Positions 9,568 to 22,471 of a stretch of 22,471 bases of DNA are shown here, piece after piece. This stretch comes from a virus (Duplodnaviria; Heunggongvirae; Uroviricota; Caudoviricetes), in the IMG/VR virus record IMGVR_UViG_2778261136_000010, one strand, 5' to 3'. The translations under genes and the position numbers were made by a program. How positions within the stretch are numbered: position 1 is the stretch's first letter; each line of letters begins with the position of its first letter. The notes below the pieces were generated by a model. The model worked only from the letters and a program-made list of their open reading frames with translations. It made no database searches and was not told where the DNA came from.

Positions 9568-11334
9568 ATGAACACCACACTGACACCCGCAGATCTCGAT
9601 CCCCGTCGGCAGGCCATGCTGCTGTACTTTCAGGGATACCGCGTAGCCCGCATTGCTGAAATGCTGGGCGAGAAAGTTGCAACCGTTCACAGCTGGAAAA
9701 AACGCGACAAGTGGGGTGACTATGGGCCGCTGGATCAGATGCAGCTCACCACCGCCGCACGCTACTGCCAGCTCATCATGAAGGAGCACAAAGAAGGGAA
9801 AGATTTCAAAGAGATTGACCTGCTGGCGCGCCAGTCTGAGCGCCACGCGCGGATCGGTAAGTTTAACAATGGCGGCAACGAAGCCGACTTAAACCCTAAC
9901 GTCGCCAACCGCAACAAAGGCCCACGCCGTCAGCCGGAAAAGAACGTTTTCACCGATGAACAGATTGAGAAGCTGGAAGAAATTTTCCATTCCTCCATGT
10001 TCAACTACCAGCGCCACTGGTGGGAAGCCGGAAAAACCAACCGCATCCGCAACCTGCTGAAGTCTCGCCAGATCGGCGCGACCTTCTATTTTGCCCGTGA
10101 AGCCCTGATTGACGCCCTGCTTACCGGACGTAACCAGATTTTCCTTTCTGCCAGTAAGGCACAGGCCCACGTCTTCAAACAGTACATCATCGACTTTGCC
10201 AAAGAAGTGGAGGTGGAGCTGAAAGGCGATCCGATGGTGCTTCCCAACGGGGCCACACTGTATTTCCTCGGCACCAATGCCCGCACTGCCCAGAGTTATC
10301 ACGGCAACCTGTATCTGGATGAATATTTCTGGATACCGAAATTCCAGGAGCTGCGCAAAGTGGCTTCCGGTATGGCTATTCACAAAAAATGGCGACAAAC
10401 CTATTTTTCCACGCCATCCAGTCTGACACACAGTGCTTATCCGTTCTGGTCCGGTGCGCTATTCAACCGTGGGCGCAACAAGGCCGACAAGGTGGACATC
10501 GACCTGTCCCACAGCAATCTGGCCCCCGGCCTTCTGTGCGCAGACGGGCAATACCGCCAGATAGTCACCGTGGAAGATGCGGTACGCGGCGGCTGTAACC
10601 TGTTCGACCTTGACCAGTTGCGCATGGAATACAGCCCGGACGAATACCAGAACCTGCTGATGTGCGAGTTTGTGGACGATCTCGCGTCCGTGTTCCCGCT
10701 CAGCGAGCTGCAGGCGTGCATGGTGGACAGCTGGGAAGTCTGGACCGACTTTCATGCACTGGCGCTGCGCCCGTTTGGCTGGCGCGAAGTGTGGATCGGT
10801 TATGACCCGGCAAAAGGTACGCAAAACGGCGACAGCGCCGGATGCGTAGTGGTGGCACCGCCAGCCGTGCCTGGTGGTAAGTTCCGCATTCTTGAGCGTC
10901 ACCAGTGGCGCGGGATGGACTTCCGCGCCCAGGCTGACGCCATCAAAAAACTGACCGAGCAGTACAACGTGACCTACATCGGCATCGACTCGACAGGTGT
11001 CGGCCACGGGGTTTACGAGAACGTGAAAGCGTTTTTTCCAGCCGTCCGGGAGTTTGTCTACAACCCCAACGTTAAAAACGCTCTGGTACTCAAGGCCTAC
11101 GACATTATCAGCCACCGCCGTCTGGAGTTTGACGCCGGGCACACCGACATTGCGCAGTCATTCATGGCAATCCGTCGCGCCACCACCGCCAGTGGCAACC
11201 GCCCAACCTATGAAGCCAGCCGCAGCGAAGAAGCCAGCCACGCCGATCTGGCCTGGGCAACAATGCACGCACTGTTTAACGAACCGCTGCAGGGCGAGTC
11301 CGCCAATACCAGCAATATTATGGAGATTTTTTGA
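9568..11334 (+). CDS. P: Terminase large (ATPase) subunit gpP
   Basis: 588 aa, ATG at 9568; stop overlaps the Q start. Size and position as P2 gpP. Confidence 0.9.
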   Translation: MNTTLTPADLDPRRQAMLLYFQGYRVARIAEMLGEKVATVHSWKKRDKWGDYGPLDQMQLTTAARYCQLIMKEHKEGKDFKEIDLLARQSERHARIGKFNNGGNEADLNPNVANRNKGPRRQPEKNVFTDEQIEKLEEIFHSSMFNYQRHWWEAGKTNRIRNLLKSRQIGATFYFAREALIDALLTGRNQIFLSASKAQAHVFKQYIIDFAKEVEVELKGDPMVLPNGATLYFLGTNARTAQSYHGNLYLDEYFWIPKFQELRKVASGMAIHKKWRQTYFSTPSSLTHSAYPFWSGALFNRGRNKADKVDIDLSHSNLAPGLLCADGQYRQIVTVEDAVRGGCNLFDLDQLRMEYSPDEYQNLLMCEFVDDLASVFPLSELQACMVDSWEVWTDFHALALRPFGWREVWIGYDPAKGTQNGDSAGCVVVAPPAVPGGKFRILERHQWRGMDFRAQADAIKKLTEQYNVTYIGIDSTGVGHGVYENVKAFFPAVREFVYNPNVKNALVLKAYDIISHRRLEFDAGHTDIAQSFMAIRRATTASGNRPTYEASRSEEASHADLAWATMHALFNEPLQGESANTSNIMEIF

Positions 11335-12362
11335 TGGGAAAGAGTAAGAAAAACCGCGCTGCGGCGACGAATCAGCTCAAGCATAAAAGCCAGAATTCAG
11401 CCGAAGCATTCAGCTTTGGCGATCCCGTTCCTGTTCTGGACCGCCGTGAACTGCTGGACTATGTGGAATGCGTACAGATGGACCGCTGGTATGAGCCGCC
11501 CGTCAGCTTTGACGGACTGGCACGAACCTTCCGCGCCGCCGTGCATCACAGCTCACCGATTGCAGTAAAATGCAACATTCTGACCAGTACCTACATCCCT
11601 CACCCGCTGCTCAGCCAGCAGGCTTTTTCACGTTTTGTGCAGGACTATCTGGTATTTGGTAACGCTTACCTGGAGAAACGCACGAACCGGTTCGGTGAAG
11701 TTATCGCCCTTGAGCCTGCTCTGGCAAAATACACCCGACGTGGGTTAGACCTGGATACCTACTGGTTTGTGCAATACGGTATGGCAACCCAGCCGTATCA
11801 GTTCACGAAAGGCAGCATCTTTCATCTGATGGAACCGGATATTAATCAGGAGATCTACGGCCTGCCTGGCTATCTTTCTGCTATTCCATCCGCTCTGCTC
11901 AACGAGTCCGCCACGCTGTTCCGCCGGAAGTATTACATTAACGGCAGTCATGCAGGCTTCATCATGTACATGACCGATGCCGCGCAAAACCAGGAAGATG
12001 TGAACAACCTCCGCAACGCGATGAAAAGCGCCAAAGGTCCGGGCAATTTCCGCAACCTGTTTATGTACTCGCCTAACGGCAAAAAAGATGGCATTCAGAT
12101 TATCCCGTTATCGGAAGTCGCGGCGAAGGATGAGTTTTTGAATATCAAGAACGTGAGCCGGGACGACATGATGGCAGCACACCGTGTGCCGCCACAAATG
12201 ATGGGGATTATGCCTAATAATGTTGGGGGATTTGGGGATGTGGAGAAGGCGAGCTTGGTCTTTGTTCGTAATGAACTGATTCCTTTACAAAAAAGACTGA
12301 TGGAAGTAAATGTCTGGCTCAATGAAGAAGTGATTGTATTCAATAGATACATTTTAGAGTAA
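11334..12362 (+). CDS. Q: Portal protein gpQ
   Basis: ATG at 11334 overlaps the P stop (TGATG); ~342 aa; position and size as P2 gpQ. The last ~50 codons have visibly different, AT-rich codon usage. Confidence 0.9.
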   Translation: MGKSKKNRAAATNQLKHKSQNSAEAFSFGDPVPVLDRRELLDYVECVQMDRWYEPPVSFDGLARTFRAAVHHSSPIAVKCNILTSTYIPHPLLSQQAFSRFVQDYLVFGNAYLEKRTNRFGEVIALEPALAKYTRRGLDLDTYWFVQYGMATQPYQFTKGSIFHLMEPDINQEIYGLPGYLSAIPSALLNESATLFRRKYYINGSHAGFIMYMTDAAQNQEDVNNLRNAMKSAKGPGNFRNLFMYSPNGKKDGIQIIPLSEVAAKDEFLNIKNVSRDDMMAAHRVPPQMMGIMPNNVGGFGDVEKASLVFVRNELIPLQKRLMEVNVWLNEEVIVFNRYILE

Positions 12363-12392: not shown

Positions 12393-13817
12393 TTACTTAC
12401 GTGTTTCAACTATATTCAGCCCCTTATAAAGGCTTTGATGGATATATACAGAACCAGTATTTGGCAACATTAAATCAGCATCTTCACATCGGAATCTAGC
12501 CGTACCGGAATTGCCCAACCGGACACCAATCACAGAAGCATTAAATAGAGTTTTCATCAATTCACGAGAAGTATAGCGCTTACAAAGGTCAGGCGCTTTC
12601 TCTTCAATCTTACTGATGAATTCTTCTGTAGAATTATATCTATGCTGCGTCTGACGTAAAGATTCCAATAGCTCACCAAAATGAGGGTAGAGCCTTTTGT
12701 ATTCTTGTTTTAAGTCCTCAACTTTCCAAGCGCTGTACCGTTCTTCAGCTATTCTAATTATATCCTTTTTTATTTCAGAAGCATTAGCATCACAGCGTTT
12801 TTGGCATTCTTGCAAAAACTGAATAACTTCTCTTGGGCGCAAAAATGTGCGCTTCACCAAATAGTTAAATGGTGAAATACTTCCTCTCATTTCACCTTCC
12901 TCAAAAATATCATCTATAGTTATATTTTCCGGCAATCTGGCGTTCACCATATCTTTCAACAACTCTGGTGTCCAGATTATTTCTTCTTCAATTGCTCGGT
13001 GTTTATCTTTATCATCAAATTCCAGCCCTTGATAAATATCAGAGCGTAAAAATGTTACAATATGAATACCTTTGGCTCTAGTATCAGAATAACTATCATT
13101 AATATCTTTTGTTGCCTTCAACAAGCCAATCAAAAGGCTTTTGGCATCATCCGATCCATCCCAAGAATCATCTAATCGATCAGTGGCAATTAGCACCCCA
13201 ATATCTGTACAAATTTCTTTAAGCTCGTCAAGGATGATTTTTATTATTTGAGGTGTCAATGGTGCTTGCGAAGCATCCTTATTAAACCCCACAGCATATC
13301 CGAAAGCCTCAAAATTGAATGAACTTAATCCCGAGAGTAACTTCCTTGCAGTTCCCAAAGTAGTTGGCGATATACCACCATAGTTATCAGAAACAAATTT
13401 TTTAATTCTAGCAAGGGCCTCCCGAGGTCTTTTCTCTGAAAATTGCCTACCTGACCTAATAATTTCTGCCGCAGCCTCAACAGCTATTGCAAATTTCCAA
13501 GCATTACAATGTGCCTGTTCGGGTAACAACCCTTGCTCTTGATATTGTTTTAATGCTCCCCAAGCATACTGGTCTGGGGTCATGACATTTACGATAACGT
13601 CCTGCCCATATTTTGCTCTTACCAACCTTGGGAGTTGGGTAAAGATGGATGATTTCCCAGCCCCCTTTCTTCCAAGAAAATGGGCACTATAGAAACTCAG
13701 AGCTTGCTCAACTTGAGGAGTATTGATGAAATAATCAGCCAACCTTCTATCAGCTTCAGCATCGACAGTACCAAAGTTGAGTCCCTTAACTGTAAGGCCT
13801 AACGCATCTAACCGCAC
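12393..13817 (-). CDS. Hypothetical P-loop NTPase (474 aa), AT-rich cargo gene in the cos-proximal variable region; candidate phage-defence / exclusion protein, family not recognised
   Basis: GTG start at 13817 with an AAGGA Shine-Dalgarno 6 nt upstream. Walker A GRKGAGKS at residues 49-56; Walker B-like GVLIATDRLDD near residues 207-217. Markedly lower GC and different codon usage (AGA, ATA, TTA) than flanking phage genes. Own terminator. No TOPRIM or other effector motif recognised by eye. Confidence 0.7.
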   Translation of the reverse strand: MRLDALGLTVKGLNFGTVDAEADRRLADYFINTPQVEQALSFYSAHFLGRKGAGKSSIFTQLPRLVRAKYGQDVIVNVMTPDQYAWGALKQYQEQGLLPEQAHCNAWKFAIAVEAAAEIIRSGRQFSEKRPREALARIKKFVSDNYGGISPTTLGTARKLLSGLSSFNFEAFGYAVGFNKDASQAPLTPQIIKIILDELKEICTDIGVLIATDRLDDSWDGSDDAKSLLIGLLKATKDINDSYSDTRAKGIHIVTFLRSDIYQGLEFDDKDKHRAIEEEIIWTPELLKDMVNARLPENITIDDIFEEGEMRGSISPFNYLVKRTFLRPREVIQFLQECQKRCDANASEIKKDIIRIAEERYSAWKVEDLKQEYKRLYPHFGELLESLRQTQHRYNSTEEFISKIEEKAPDLCKRYTSRELMKTLFNASVIGVRLGNSGTARFRCEDADLMLPNTGSVYIHQSLYKGLNIVETRK

Positions 13818-13904
13818 GATAATTCCTTAATTGGTAAACTAAATTTGAACTTGATGCCAACAAAGATAATATCAATTTAATTAAAAAGAAAGCTGTTGCG
13901 CGCG

Positions 13905-13923
13905 CTCGTATCCCCGCCACGCC
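13905..13923 (-). other. Candidate cos site (19-nt cohesive-end sequence)
   Basis: Minus strand reads GGCGTGGCGGGGATACGAG. The first 13 nt match my recollection of the conserved start of P2/186 cohesive ends (GGCG[A/T]GGCGGGGA...). Orientation is consistent with the left end running towards Q. Not verified against a database. Confidence 0.5.
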
Positions 13924-13964
13924 TGCCCGCTTTATGTAGTGGTTTTCATGCACCTGCATGATCT

Positions 13965-13992
13965 ACGCAAAAGCCCGCCAGTTCTGGCGGGC
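13965..13992 (-). terminator. Putative intrinsic terminator downstream of the tum-like operon
   Basis: Seen: GCCCGCCA-GTTC-TGGCGGGC hairpin (13973-13992), followed on the minus strand by TTTTGCG. Confidence 0.45.
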
Positions 13993-14127
13993 CTTAGCAA
14001 AAACGATCCTCAAACGATCATGCGATCTCATGCGGCATAGACATGCACTACAGAGCTAACGCCTCGCAAGGGCTCGTTGTTCAACGTTGCTGACGCCAGA
14101 AACAAGTTCAGACGCCAGCAACGTTTC

Positions 14128-14361
14128 TTAATGCAGCCAGCTGTCGTCTTCCCACACCTTCTGCATAATTTTCATCACTTGTTTTCTTTCTTCGTCCAGT
14201 TGCAGTCCGGTCAGTTCCACACCGTTAGAGCTACCTTTGCGGATACGAATTACCGTTTTGGGATACAGGGGGCGCAGATTGCGGTAAAGCTCGGATTCAA
14301 GGGCGTCCAGTGTAGACAGGCTAATCTTCTGCTCTTTATCGATCATTATTTCAATGCGCAT
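14128..14361 (-). CDS. DinI-family protein (SOS-regulated; homologous to the DinI-like part of the 186 Tum antirepressor)
   Basis: Start placed at ATG 14361 (MRIEIMIDKEQKISLSTLDALESELYRNL...VWEDDSWLH), with a GAGGTGA Shine-Dalgarno upstream. Aligns by eye with E. coli DinI (MRIEVTIAK...ETWESADDWFVSE). The ORF track extends to 14433. Confidence 0.8.
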   Translation of the reverse strand: MRIEIMIDKEQKISLSTLDALESELYRNLRPLYPKTVIRIRKGSSNGVELTGLQLDEERKQVMKIMQKVWEDDSWLH

Positions 14362-14371
14362 AAAAGTCACC

Positions 14372-14560
14372 TCAGCTGATGACATCCATTGAGCGGTTGT
14401 ATTCGTGGGTTCTGATTTTTGCCATGAGTTCATCTGTCAGTTCAGAAACCCACTGCAGGGCCAGCCCCTTCTCTTCATCACTACACTCACTAGCAGCTAC
14501 AAGCTTAAGAAAAAAATCAATGCGCTGGAGCTTCAAAGACTCCAAAAAATAGTCCTGCAT
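14372..14560 (-). CDS. Small protein (62 aa), first gene of the LexA-controlled operon; possibly the N-terminal part of a split Tum-like antirepressor
   Basis: ATG at 14560 with an AGGAGG Shine-Dalgarno 4 nt upstream; stop TGA at 14372-14374 lies 11 nt before the DinI-like ATG. No recognisable motif. Confidence 0.5.
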   Translation of the reverse strand: MQDYFLESLKLQRIDFFLKLVAASECSDEEKGLALQWVSELTDELMAKIRTHEYNRSMDVIS

Positions 14561-14602
14561 CTTTCCTCCTATGACACCAAAGCAATACTGTATACATAAC
14601 CA

Positions 14603-14618
14603 CTGTTTATATTTACAG
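14603..14618 (-). promoter_or_regulatory. LexA operator (SOS box) overlapping the promoter of the tum-like operon
   Basis: Seen: perfect CTGT-N8-ACAG (CTGTTTATATTTACAG). On the minus strand it overlaps a candidate sigma70 promoter, TTTACA-17 nt-TACTGT. A weaker second box-like sequence lies at 14588-14603. Confidence 0.7.
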
Positions 14619-14712
14619 TATATAATAATCTTACTGATGTAAAACGTTTTTTTACGTTCATCAGCCTGATATGCCTGGTATTATTAAGAGCACGAATTGT
14701 TAACCCGCGTAA

Positions 14713-17127
14713 TTAATACAGATTCCGCCACTTATCATCTTCCTGCAAACGCTGGTTCCGATAGAAGATACGCAGGCCTGCTCCTGACGGAATACTGCCA
14801 CCGCGAAGGAGTAAATCGACCTCTTTCTCGCTGCCATCAAATCCTCTGGACTTCAGTTCATAGACGAGCTGCTGTCGCTGATGATCTGTAATTCGCTGTT
14901 TGTAGTCTTTACGCCGTTTCGGCTTAACCAGGCGTAACCTTGCTGCCAGCTCCCGGCGCTCTTTTTTGCTCATACTGTGCAGGTAATCGTGCAACTCCTT
15001 GTCATCCATGCGGGTAATGTCCGTTCTGGTGTCCCCATCAGCTGATTTATCTTTCTCCTGTTGGTTCAAATTTTCCGCAAGGGGACAGTTATTGCCACGA
15101 GTCCAAGGGGCGCAAGCGCCCTGGTCGGCTGCCGCCTCCTGAACGTCAACGGCTTTACGAACCATTTTCCACTTCACTGCATGAGTGCAGATCTTGCCCT
15201 CTGCAATGGGTGACCAGATGCCATAAATACGAATGCCGTGATCGCCATAGGCGGTCGGCTCTTCGTTGATTTCATAAGCGGTTCTGATGAGGTGATATTT
15301 ACGGGGAACCAGTACGCCGCCCTGCTTCATGATGTAGGTGGCAAAACAACCAGCATCAGCAGCAGCCAGGATGGCATCAAGGCGCGGGTTATCCAGTACC
15401 GGCGCACCTGCTTTTTTGTCCCCCTGTTGCCTTGCCGCCTGACCAGCCAGCAATCGCAGTTCACGGTAAGCCTGACGCCCCGGAATGCCAAAGAAGCGGA
15501 ATTGCTGAACACGATGCAAAGACGCCCAGGCATTCACGTATTCAGCGTTATCACGCAGAGATTTACCCGTTTCCTTGCTGATCTCGCCAGCCAGACCACG
15601 CCCGTCAATGTTCTTACTGATGTATTTCGCTATGTAGCTTGTCGGCGTTCCTTTGCGCGGGTTAATCAGCTCAGACTTAAAGCGCGGCCCCGTGTTATTG
15701 CCCAGCTCCTCGCGGTCTTCACGGATAGCAAACTTACGCAACAATGCAGTAATGGCGCGGCGGTCTTTTTTGCGCATGAAACACAACAGGTGCCAGTGAA
15801 CTGTGCCGTCGTGATGCGGCTCAGCCACCCGCACGCCATACCAGCGCAACCCGGCTTTGTGCATCGCCTTACGAAATGCAGCAAACATACCGACCAGATA
15901 ATCGCTGCTTTGTCTTACCGTCGCATTTGTCCAGGTCGGGTTGGGCCTGCCGTTATTTAGCGTGGAATGGAAACGTGACGGACAGGTGATGGTGTAGAAA
16001 ACGGCGCAGTCACCGCGCATTTCCGCGATAAGCTCCAGACCTTTAACACAGGCCATCATCTCATTGCGGCGATGCGCAGGGTTGCTGCTGCTGGCGTTTA
16101 CCACATCCTCCATATCCAGCGTGTCGCCGTCTTCGTTCACCAGTTCATGAGAACGGAAAAACTCCAGCGACTTACGGCGCTGCTCACGTTTATGCATCAC
16201 GGCTTCATAGCTGACATAGGGAGATGCTTTTTTGCTGACCAGGCAAACAGCACGCAACTGCTCTTCCCGCCATTCGCAACGCATCTTCCATAATTTCCGG
16301 TACCACCAGTCGGCGCACAACATACGCGCCAGCGAACCCGGAATGAGTTCATAGGGCACGGGTTTACGGCGGTTTCTTTTCCGGCGGAGTTGCTCAAACG
16401 CAGGCGGTATGACATCCAGTCGCAGGGTTTCTGCTGCCACCTTTTCCCATGTCTTGCGGATTTCTTCTGGCTTAACATCATCGGTGGCGTACAAATCACC
16501 ACAAGCGGCATCAAGACACATGCTCATATGCGCAGCGACAAGAGTAGACAGGCGTTTCACCTGATTCTGACTCATTTCAGGCAGGATCAGCAGACCCTCC
16601 AGCCCTTGATGGCTTGCCATAAAACGGAAAGAAACAGATAGCTGACTGTCACGTACACAATCCAGTCGCTCCAGACATGGCTTAATCGTCTCACGCAAAT
16701 AGCGGGAATAAGCCTTTGGCCTGCCCAGGCTGCTGAAGTATTCGATACGTTGCATCAGCGGCTTGCTGATGTGGGTGGGCTGGGCGCTGACGTCCGCCAG
16801 AATGACCATGTCCGGGTTAAAACGCTGCTGCTCATGCGCCAGCTTTGCCCGACTAATGAGCTTATCCTGCTCCATTTCGCGCTGGACAGGATCACGGGAT
16901 TCATTAAAGAAATAACGCTCCCAGACCTGTTCACTCAATTCCTCGCGGCGCAGCTGTTCCTGCTCGTTATCGGCAGCATACAGAGTGATCAGGTTTGAAA
17001 GCGCAGAAACCGGCGCAACTTCCGCCGGGTCCAGATAAGGGTTTATGGCCTTTTTCGGGCCATTCCATGAAAATGCTGCAGCGGCCTCGTTAAAGCCGCT
17101 AGAGTCGCTCATATCGTCATGACTCAT
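14713..17127 (-). CDS. A: Replication initiation protein gpA (rolling-circle HUH endonuclease)
   Basis: 804-aa ORF with ATG at 17127; HUH motif in [11 protein letters not shown]; tyrosine motif YIAKYISKN. Position as P2/186 A. Confidence 0.85.
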
Positions 17128-20455: not shown

Positions 20456-21025
20456 ATGAATTTGGAGAAAGGCGGACGAGGCGCTATAGAGCGCATGGTA
20501 GAAGCTTATGGATTCAAAACTCGACAGGCGTTGTGCGATCATTTAGGAATCTCTAAAAGTACACTCGCCACACGCTACATGCGTGACTCATTCCCAGCAG
20601 AATGGGTAATCCAGTGCGCCCTTGAAACGGGCACCTCGCTTAATTGGCTCACAACCGGACATGGTTCAAAGCAAACTTCAGGTAATACAAATACTATGGA
20701 AGTTGCTAAATATGTATTATCTGATGGTGCCTTGCGTGAAGACAGTTTTTATATTTTTGATAAGGGATTTCTACCCTCTACGTTTAAAAAACCTTTTGTC
20801 ATCACAGATAACAATTCTGAATTTATTTGTGATAAAGAATTTGATGATATACGTGATGGTAAATGGGTAATAAGTATTGATGGCGAAATAACAATCCGCG
20901 ACATTACTCGTTTACCCGGTGGAAGAATCTTCGTTGAAGGTGGAAACAGAGCCTTCGAGTGCAAGATAGAAGATGTTGAAATAATTGGAAAAATTATAAG
21001 TTTAACAATTAAGTACGTTAGGTAA
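20456..21025 (+). CDS. cI: CI immunity repressor (186-type)
   Basis: Start placed at ATG 20456 with GGAG upstream, giving 189 aa; N-terminal HTH (TRQALCDHLGISKSTLATRYMRD). The ORF track gives a GTG at 20450. Confidence 0.85.
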   Translation: MNLEKGGRGAIERMVEAYGFKTRQALCDHLGISKSTLATRYMRDSFPAEWVIQCALETGTSLNWLTTGHGSKQTSGNTNTMEVAKYVLSDGALREDSFYIFDKGFLPSTFKKPFVITDNNSEFICDKEFDDIRDGKWVISIDGEITIRDITRLPGGRIFVEGGNRAFECKIEDVEIIGKIISLTIKYVR

Positions 21026-21040
21026 TACCGGGAGGAAACT

Positions 21041-21232
21041 ATGCTTGGTAAGGTATTTTTTGTGGTTTTATCATGCTCTTTGTTATTAAACCCACTAACT
21101 ACCTATGCTAAAAATTATCCTTGTTCTGGGAAAAAGGGAGGTGTCTCTCACTGTACCTCCGATGGTAAGTTCGTTTGCAATGATGGAACTATTAGTAAAT
21201 CAAAAAAAATCTGTACTAAAAACTCGCGATAA
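21041..21232 (+). CDS. Small secreted cysteine-rich protein (63 aa), moron candidate between cI and int
   Basis: ATG at 21041 with a strong GGGAGG Shine-Dalgarno; signal peptide [23 protein letters not shown]; ~40-aa mature peptide with 4 Cys; AT-rich. Confidence 0.55.
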
Positions 21233-21365: not shown

Positions 21366-21394
21366 TTGACACTGGTTATATATACAGTAAAAAT
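21366..21394 (+). promoter_or_regulatory. Candidate int promoter with an overlapping LexA-box-like palindrome
   Basis: Seen: perfect -35 TTGACA (21366-21371), then CTGGTTATATATACAG (21372-21387), which is CTGT-N8-ACAG with one mismatch, then a TAAAAA -10-like hexamer. GGAGG at 21405-21409 and int ATG at 21419. Confidence 0.3.
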
Positions 21395-21418
21395 GCTCTC
21401 CACTGGAGGGCATTTTTT

Positions 21419-22471
21419 ATGGCAGTACGAAAACTCACCACAGGAAAATGGCTTTGCGAATGTTACCCCGCCGGACGTAGTGGACGTCGTGTGCGTAAAC
21501 AATTCGCCACCAAAGGCGAAGCTCTGGCTTTTGAGCGTCACACGATGGAAGAAACCGAAGCAAAGCCCTGGCTGGGTGAATCAGTAGATCGTCGAACACT
21601 GAAAGACGTGGTTGAGCTATGGTTCAAACTACATGGTAAATCACTGACTGCTGGGCAGCATGTCTATGACAAATTGCTGCTGATGGTTGACGCTCTGGGC
21701 AATCCCCTTGCAACTGATCTCACATCTAAAATGTTTGCCCACTATCGAGATAAACGCCTGACAGGTGAGATCTACTTCAGCGAGAAATGGAAGAAAGGAG
21801 CCAGCCCGGTCACCATTAACCTGGAGCAAAGCTATCTAAGTAGTGTTTTTAGCGAACTATCCCGCCTGGGCGAATGGTCGTATCCAAACCCACTGGAGAA
21901 CATGCGAAAATTCACCATCGCAGAAAAAGAGATGGCATGGCTTACCCATGAGCAGATTGTTGAACTGCTGGCTGATTGCAAACGTCAGGACCCAATTCTG
22001 GCACTGGTAGTTAAGATATGCTTAAGCACAGGCGCACGCTGGCGTGAAGCCGTAAATCTTACCCGCTCACAGGTGACCAAATACCGAATTACCTTTGTAA
22101 GAACGAAGGGGAAGAAAAACAGAAGCATCCCTATCAGTAAAGAGCTTTACGAAGAGATCATGGCGCTTGATGGGTTCAATTTCTTCACAGACTGCTATTT
22201 TCAATTTTTATCCGTAATGGAAAAAACGTCTATCGTGCTCCCTCGCGGTCAACTGACACACGTTCTGCGCCATACGTTTGCGGCGCATTTCATGATATCG
22301 GGTGGAAATATCCTTGCTTTGCAAAAAATCCTCGGACATCACGATATAAAAATGACTATGCGTTACGCTCATCTGGCACCGGATTATCTGGAAACGGCGC
22401 TCCGTTTCAATCCTCTGGCAACGCTGCCAAGTGGCGACAAAGTGGCGGCAGCGGTTGGCATTACCCCGTAA
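21419..22471 (+). CDS. int: Tyrosine integrase (P2/186 Int family)
   Basis: Start placed at ATG 21419 (MAVRKLTTGKWLCECYPAGRSGRRVRKQF...), ~350 aa; C-terminal catalytic motifs HVLRHTFAAHF...LGHHDIKMTMRYAHL. Stop TAA is the last 3 nt of the window. The ORF track extends to 21341. Confidence 0.9.
   Translation: MAVRKLTTGKWLCECYPAGRSGRRVRKQFATKGEALAFERHTMEETEAKPWLGESVDRRTLKDVVELWFKLHGKSLTAGQHVYDKLLLMVDALGNPLATDLTSKMFAHYRDKRLTGEIYFSEKWKKGASPVTINLEQSYLSSVFSELSRLGEWSYPNPLENMRKFTIAEKEMAWLTHEQIVELLADCKRQDPILALVVKICLSTGARWREAVNLTRSQVTKYRITFVRTKGKKNRSIPISKELYEEIMALDGFNFFTDCYFQFLSVMEKTSIVLPRGQLTHVLRHTFAAHFMISGGNILALQKILGHHDIKMTMRYAHLAPDYLETALRFNPLATLPSGDKVAAAVGITP

Follow-up and report, generated by a model that had tools for sequence, protein, structure and literature searches.

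The window, by which we mean the whole stretch of 22,471 nucleotides analysed here, is a P2-like prophage read across cos. Its late genes run up to the portal gene Q, and beyond them lie a cargo gene and a small minus-strand operon, tum, which is situated between replication gene A and the cos/cargo hotspot. The early side comprises gene A, a Dam methylase and small early genes, and the window also encodes CII (CP76), an Apl/Cox-like gene, a divergent 186-type CI and int. Features bearing on the tum operon are listed here; those at int are given further below.

11331-12362, plus strand: portal gene Q, the last of the late genes
12393-13817, minus strand: cargo gene, occupying the position of old/tin in P2
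13969-13993, minus strand: hairpin resembling an intrinsic terminator, GGCCCGCCAG-AACU-CUGGCGGGCC followed by UUUU, which closes the tumA-tumB operon
14128-14560, minus strand: tum operon, just downstream of gene A and in the same direction
14128-14361, minus strand: tumB, 77 aa, DinI-like (Pfam DinI, E 2.5e-22)
14372-14560, minus strand: tumA, 62 aa, predicted antirepressor of the 186-type CI (from homology and DuoHS genetics)
14565-14570, minus strand: Shine-Dalgarno sequence AGGAGG, 4 nt ahead of the tumA ATG and kept in relatives
14586-14605: LexA box 2, CAGTGGTTATGTATACAGTA as read on the minus strand, at a 15-bp offset from box 1 and sharing a 5-nt overlap (CAGTG) with it
14601-14620: LexA box 1, the 20-mer TACTGTAAATATAAACAGTG as read on the minus strand, with the CTGT-N8-ACAG core CTGTTTATATTTACAG at 14603-14618
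14615-14620, minus strand: -10 hexamer TACTGT, the left half of LexA box 1 and the same as the annotated -10 of 186 p95
14638-14643, minus strand: -35 hexamer TTTACA, from direct reading, corresponding to TTCACA of the annotated 186 p95
14713-17127, minus strand: replication gene A
20456-21025, plus strand: cI, the 186-type immunity repressor (from Pfam domains and identity to 186 CI) and putative target of TumA

The order gene A, tum operon, cargo, Q is common to the window, 186, Fels-2, PSP3 and DuoHS (a prophage of E. coli HS), and the region shares ~97% identity with Fels-2 and with many Peduoviridae of Escherichia, Klebsiella and Salmonella. In both Fels-2 (STM2728 / STM2726.1, ~97% identical here) and DuoHS (ECHS_RS04495 / ECHS_RS04500, tum region 97% identical), box 1 is identical to that of the window and the double box, gene order and gene sizes are the same; the TumA and TumB of DuoHS agree with those of the window at 61 of 62 and 76 of 77 residues, respectively. 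The module was found in 1125 of 5426 complete E. coli genomes (~21%). In P2, by comparison, the place of tum is taken by orf91, tin and old.

The product of the cargo gene is a P-loop ATPase of 474 aa that belongs to the Sll1717 family (NCBIfam NF047389, 284 bits). It also has a faint match to the 'anti-phage protein' model DS41_1, far under the cut-off of that model; the protein has no Pfam or PADLOC match, and the Tum proteins likewise have no match in PADLOC. Cargo genes downstream of tumB were unlike in each phage examined, and because the content of this slot differs in every relative, the gene at 12393-13817 is a candidate defence gene.

The tum promoter and its LexA boxes

The gap between the gene A stop (14713) and the tumA ATG (14560) is 152 bp, and its minus strand reads ...CGTTTTACATCAGTAAGATTATTATATACTGTAAATATAAACAGTGGTTATGTATACAGTATTGCTTTGGTGTCATAGGAGGAAAGATG. 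A preliminary description of this DNA had placed a perfect LexA box within 14561-14640, overlapping the -10 region of a minus-strand promoter that precedes a ribosome-binding site and the first ORF. Direct reading confirmed both the TTTACA-17-TACTGT promoter, with its 17-nt spacer, and the AGGAGG, and the box CTGTTTATATTTACAG was recovered at 14603-14618 with the same sequence and in the same overlap with the -10. The range given does hold the box, the -10 and the Shine-Dalgarno sequence, but the first 3 nt of the -35 hexamer (14643-14638) fall outside it. The term 'perfect' is accurate for the CTGT-N8-ACAG core but not for the 20-mer consensus TACTGTATATATATACAGTA, which box 1 matches at 17 of 20 positions.

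The promoter matches the consensus at 8 of 12 positions, and a consensus sigma-70 scan of 13700-15000 called no promoter; we accepted it despite the 8/12 match on the basis of its conservation and of a comparison with 186. The 186 record gives p95 as TTCACA-18-TACTGT with a LexA site, TACTGTATGTTTATACAGTA, that begins at the -10, and it annotates p95 with 'SOS-dependent transcription' and tum with 'expression repressed by LexA; inhibits CI DNA binding'. Shared between 186 and the window are an operon just after gene A near the right genome end, a -10 TACTGT that forms the left half of the LexA box, a -35 of the form TT(T/C)ACA, the immunity genes for CI, Apl and CII, and a terminator after the operon followed by a cargo gene. 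The two differ in the number of boxes (one near-consensus box in 186, two overlapping boxes in the window), in the promoter spacer (18 nt in 186, 17 nt in the window) and in Tum, which is a single 146-aa fusion with internal starts in 186 and two ORFs in the window.

We assessed conservation by aligning the gene A-tum gap from ten phages (the window, Fels-2, 813R9, a Yersinia Elveevirus, SEN8, a Klebsiella Gegevirus, PSP3, SEN1, RCIP0057 and 186). The sole island invariant in all ten was TACTGTA...ACAGT, between flanks that have diverged. The distance from TTTACA to TACTGT was constant in the six Fels-2-type sequences, in which the letters of the spacer change, and box 1 was nearly invariant among 52 distinct upstream sequences from 80 viral contigs with identical TumA. 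The CTGT-N8-ACAG pattern occurs once in the 22.5-kb window (0.23 expected), at CTGTTTATATTTACAG. As 22 of 100 shuffles of the window contained at least one such pattern somewhere, the pattern by itself is weak evidence, and the case for box 1 rests on its position in the 152-bp intergenic gap and on its conservation.

Just past gene A, at 14634-14665 on the minus strand, an imperfect palindrome (CTGATGAACGTAAAAAAACGTTTTACATCAG) overlaps the tum -35. The corresponding hairpin (-12 kcal/mol, z -4.7) has no U tract and is not kept in the Yersinia, Klebsiella and SEN8 relatives; it may provide weak insulation of tum from early-operon read-through.

The literal search for CTGT-N8-ACAG proved too strict, since a box with a CTGG or GTGG half, as in box 2 and in the box at int, escapes detection. 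When all 22,452 positions of the window were scored with a LexA matrix, the int box ranked first, box 1 second and box 2 third, with the next-best score far behind. The matrix, drawn up from a set of LexA sites, fails to reproduce published values of the heterology index (recA 5.9 versus 4.31, umuDC 0.5 versus 2.77), and its scores serve here for ranking and for shuffling controls alone. After the colicin boxes had been taken out of the matrix, and with the five bases shared with box 1 kept constant, the score of box 2 was reached by 2 of 200,000 resampled 15-nt tails. Box 2 is present in the Fels-2-type clade and absent from 186, PSP3, SEN1 and RCIP0057. Among the upstream variants it is the centre of its spacer that is polymorphic, whereas the half-sites are conserved. 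The spacer was also considered as a mutational hotspot, which we rejected: its polymorphism is comparable to that of tumA synonymous sites, so the variation looks neutral at unconstrained positions.

A closely similar arrangement is found in the double SOS boxes of ColE1-type colicins, in which two 20-mers at a 15-bp offset share a CAGTG junction and the second box, like box 2, pairs a GTGG left half with a perfect ACAG right half. A 50-nt probe of the Fels-2 tum operator matched 1108 plasmid records, and in the three Col plasmids examined (L010-L012) the match (~82-85% over 46-47 nt) lies just upstream of pore-forming colicin genes, with the boxes again at the 15-bp offset. The two systems differ in geometry, the colicin boxes lying downstream of the -10 whereas box 1 of the tum operator includes it, and in the regulated product, a lethal toxin operon in colicins versus an antirepressor here. 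Given that the flanks are unrelated, constraint imposed by LexA is as likely an explanation of the resemblance as common descent. Colicin double boxes have been reported to bind two LexA dimers simultaneously, with tight repression or delayed induction (PMC2994835). By analogy, we infer that two LexA dimers would occupy boxes 1 and 2 of the tum operator, and that the Fels-2-type tum promoter may be under tighter repression, or be released later, than 186 p95. A literal sequence search of the literature for the colicin box returned no match, and the searched literature held no description of a double SOS box at the tum operator, although one may exist beyond it.

Antirepressor, repressor and prophage induction

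The preliminary description had a single box in front of 'tum'; its promoter stood, but the operator is a double box and tum consists of two separate genes, tumA and tumB, an arrangement also seen in PSP3 and Fels-2. The tumB Shine-Dalgarno sequence (GAGG) overlaps the tumA stop codon. At the other end of the operon, the RNA fold of 13960-14130 is stable (-71.7 kcal/mol, z -4.35), and the GC-rich hairpin at 13969-13993 adjoins a U tract in a position equivalent to that of t95a in 186. At 14366-14383 on the minus strand, GTCATCAGCTGAGGTGAC, with UUUU after it, can form a small hairpin across the tumA stop and the tumB Shine-Dalgarno sequence. A consensus scan flagged it as terminator-like, but its fold is only marginally stable (z -1.6), and translational coupling of tumB to tumA is the likelier explanation for it.

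TumB aligns with residues 71-145 of 186 Tum at 40% identity. For TumA, pairwise BLASTP against 186 Tum gave no match and a shallow profile-profile comparison (hhalign, alignments of 5 and 4 sequences) gave a weak one (E 0.012). An exhaustive search placed TumA in a small family of stand-alone proteins of ~60-70 aa (66 clusters), and an HMM built from 28 diverse members of this family matched residues 5-48 of 186 Tum with 34.7 bits and an E value of 2e-12, as obtained in a search of three sequences. With BLASTP empty and the shallow comparison weak, the homology of TumA to Tum therefore rests on the deeper profile; the profile match covers the N-terminal half of Tum and the likeness of TumB its C-terminal half, so that TumA and TumB correspond to the two halves of 186 Tum. 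This agrees with the report that tum is split by a stop codon in Fels-2 and PSP3 and that the upstream PSP3 gene has antirepressor activity (PMC3121763). PSP3 tumA/tumB, which have the same split layout, are annotated 'UV induction of prophage'; PSP3 differs from the window in its single LexA box and in having a TumA of the 186 lineage.

Genes for distant members of the TumA family (37% identity to the TumA of the window; viral contigs L179-L183) each have one near-consensus LexA box, for example TACTGTATATTCATACAGTA, located ~20 nt before the ribosome-binding site and about 40 nt upstream of position 401. No dinI-like ORF follows the TumA-family gene on the same strand in these five loci, implying that LexA control travels with tumA rather than with dinI.

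The repressor encoded in the window (189-191 aa) carries the Pfam domains Phage_CI_repr (PF07022, 2.8e-33) and Phage_CI_C (PF16452, 3.1e-28), is 32% identical to 186 CI over 175 residues and is near-identical to the CI of DuoHS. It is thus a 186-type CI and not the short C repressor of P2, whose immunity type is non-inducible. In the corresponding region of P2 (ogr to cos, 9.6 kb) no LexA-like site was found, the best score of 14.3 being equal to background. The repressor, the tum operon and the P2 comparison all uphold the earlier assignment to a 186-type rather than a P2-type induction mechanism. In 186, Tum has been reported to bind CI and prevent it from binding its operators (Shearwin et al. 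1998, as cited in PMC3121763), and we infer a corresponding contact between TumA and CI from the homologies above.

Genetic evidence comes from DuoHS, in which a lexA(Ind-) allele abolishes mitomycin C-induced lysis and virion formation, as does an in-frame deletion of 'tum' (PMC12055606). The deleted locus is ECHS_RS04495 (supplement of PMC12055606), and the primer sequences of this deletion map onto the 62-aa ORF, leaving the DinI-like gene in place. Cleavable LexA and tumA have therefore both been shown genetically to be required for induction in a prophage that is 97% identical here. The induction and lexA(Ind-) experiments proposed in the preliminary description had in effect been carried out in DuoHS, and they bear out its proposal of a LexA-repressed antirepressor operon, as do the p95 layout of 186, the ten-phage conservation and the TumA profile. 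Given the DuoHS lexA(Ind-) and tum deletion results, the interpretation is supported; the tum SOS switch works by a mechanism that was already known, and the prophage that carries it is very common.

Sequence comparison establishes the anatomy, conservation and homologies of the module, and we are highly confident in identifying the element as the module through which a P2-like prophage of the Fels-2/186 type is induced in the SOS response. In the proposed mechanism, host LexA would sit on the double operator in the lysogen and block RNA polymerase at the minus-strand TTTACA-17-TACTGT promoter, with box 1 covering the -10 and the transcription start, predicted near 14608, and box 2 covering roughly +4 to +23. 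DNA damage would activate RecA, LexA would cleave itself and the promoter would fire, giving a transcript that encodes TumA and TumB and is expected to stop at the hairpin at 13969-13993. TumA would then bind the 186-type CI (20456-21025) and end its hold on the lytic promoter, and TumB probably modulates RecA and the SOS signal. The same logic, a non-cleavable repressor inactivated by a small LexA-repressed antirepressor, is found in the Gifsy phages (GfoA/GftA) and in N15 (AntC), although the antirepressor and repressor families there are unrelated to those here; the Gifsy antirepressor operons also include a dinI homologue, in the reversed order with dinI first (PMC3121763).

Other readings of the locus were weighed against this mechanism. 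The occurrence of CTGT-N8-ACAG in about a fifth of the shuffled windows (22 of 100) would be in keeping with a palindrome without regulatory function that arose by chance in AT-rich intergenic DNA. We give this practically no credence, as the palindrome lies exactly on the -10 of a promoter 40 nt upstream of a Shine-Dalgarno sequence and ATG, is invariant in ten diverged phages and nearly so in the 52 close variants, and has equivalents ahead of TumA homologues at only 37% identity. It is also conceivable that the LexA box simply makes a DinI-like SOS modulator responsive to SOS and that induction, if any, proceeds through RecA-stimulated self-cleavage of CI, as in lambda; LexA-controlled dinI-like genes are common prophage cargo, the 62-aa ORF is labelled unknown or hypothetical in databases, and CI has a faint match to Peptidase_S24 (E 0.0057). 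However, that match is under the Pfam cut-off and the C-terminus of CI is of the 186 type (Phage_CI_C), 186 CI is inactivated by Tum according to both the 186 record and PMC3121763, the antirepressor half of 186 Tum has a homologue in TumA, and in DuoHS the loss of the 62-aa ORF alone, with the DinI-like gene intact, abolishes induction. Such a cargo role for the box is accordingly very improbable.

The remaining alternative concerns the operator itself, in which box 1 could be the only functional LexA site, as in the single-box p95 of 186, with box 2 conserved for other reasons (as 5'-UTR or initially transcribed sequence) or left as an inert relic. One box suffices in 186 and PSP3, the left half of box 2 is degenerate (GTGG in place of CTGT), the box is weaker in some relatives and scores poorly in SEN8 and 813R9, and a few natural variants change its right half to GCAG, ATAG or CACAG. 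Set against these points, the resampling makes a chance score of this size very unlikely (2/200,000), retention of the half-sites around a polymorphic spacer centre is the pattern expected of a LexA site, and the colicin operators that are reported to bind two LexA dimers (PMC2994835) have the identical 15-bp arrangement and the same GTGG left half. We consider a single functional box unlikely, albeit a serious contender, and favour the double operator.

The prophage is assigned to the SOS-inducible 186-type class and not to the non-inducible P2 class, and DNA-damaging antibiotics are predicted to mobilise it. The locus also exposes an annotation gap: TumA, an experimentally required antirepressor, carries no functional label ('hypothetical protein' in RefSeq, 'unknown function' in PHROGs as phrog_698) and matches no NCBIfam or Pfam model, while its DinI-like neighbour is often labelled 'tum' or 'SOS induction modulator'.

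The LexA box upstream of int

The highest LexA score among the 22,452 positions of the window belongs to a box upstream of int, at the following features.

21366-21418, plus strand: the element as a whole, made up of a promoter-like site (TTGACA-17-AAAAAT, ~30 nt before the int ATG at 21419), the LexA box and the hairpin
21370-21389: LexA box CACTGGTTATATATACAGTA, filling the 17-nt spacer of this promoter-like site
21389-21418: hairpin resembling a terminator, both A tract and U tract present; it lies after the -10 and before the int ATG and contains the int Shine-Dalgarno sequence

The promoter-like site matches the consensus at 10 of 12 positions. Homologue searches with Int and with TumA returned only proteins of 98-100% identity, and it was the variants in upstream DNA that were informative. 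In DuoHS, KP12, 813R9, 4LV2017 and 29 distinct viral-contig variants of the DNA upstream of int, TTGA, CTG and ACAGT never change, whereas the LexA spacer varies widely; one of the variants has the canonical CTGTATAAAAAAACAG. The hairpin (-19.2 kcal/mol, z -5.1) shows compensatory changes (GCCCTC/GAGGGC versus GTCCTC/GAGGAC), and an RNA starting near 21401 would lack the left arm and does not fold. In 186 and in Fels-2 proper, by contrast, cI abuts int and the int-proximal LexA box is absent. The int module was found in 1107 of 5426 E. coli genomes. Nothing relevant to a LexA-regulated int in P2-like phages came up in the searched literature, although such a report may exist beyond it.

The box suggests an autonomous, SOS-induced int promoter. 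Its transcript would start inside the left arm of the upstream terminator hairpin; read-through from the cI operon would either terminate or have the int Shine-Dalgarno sequence buried, and SOS-induced int transcripts would escape the hairpin and be translated. If true, this promoter couples excision to DNA damage independently of CI. A joint reading, in which LexA controls the prophage directly both at tum, through a colicin-type double box with a higher or later threshold than in 186, and at int, through a LexA-repressed promoter of its own, is one that we hold tentatively, as possible but somewhat short of probable. Both the double operator and the int box were missed in the preliminary description; they are refinements of modest weight that lend themselves to testing, and if true they would explain the tuning of the induction threshold and of excision in this prophage family.

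Between cI and int, at 21041-21232 on the plus strand, is a Cys-rich ORF of 63 aa whose N-terminus resembles a signal peptide; it belongs to the NCBIfam PRK10040 family and to phrog_6000 (unknown function). As KP12 and 813R9 have a large 'chromosome segregation ATPase' gene in the same place, the cI-int interval is a second cargo site.
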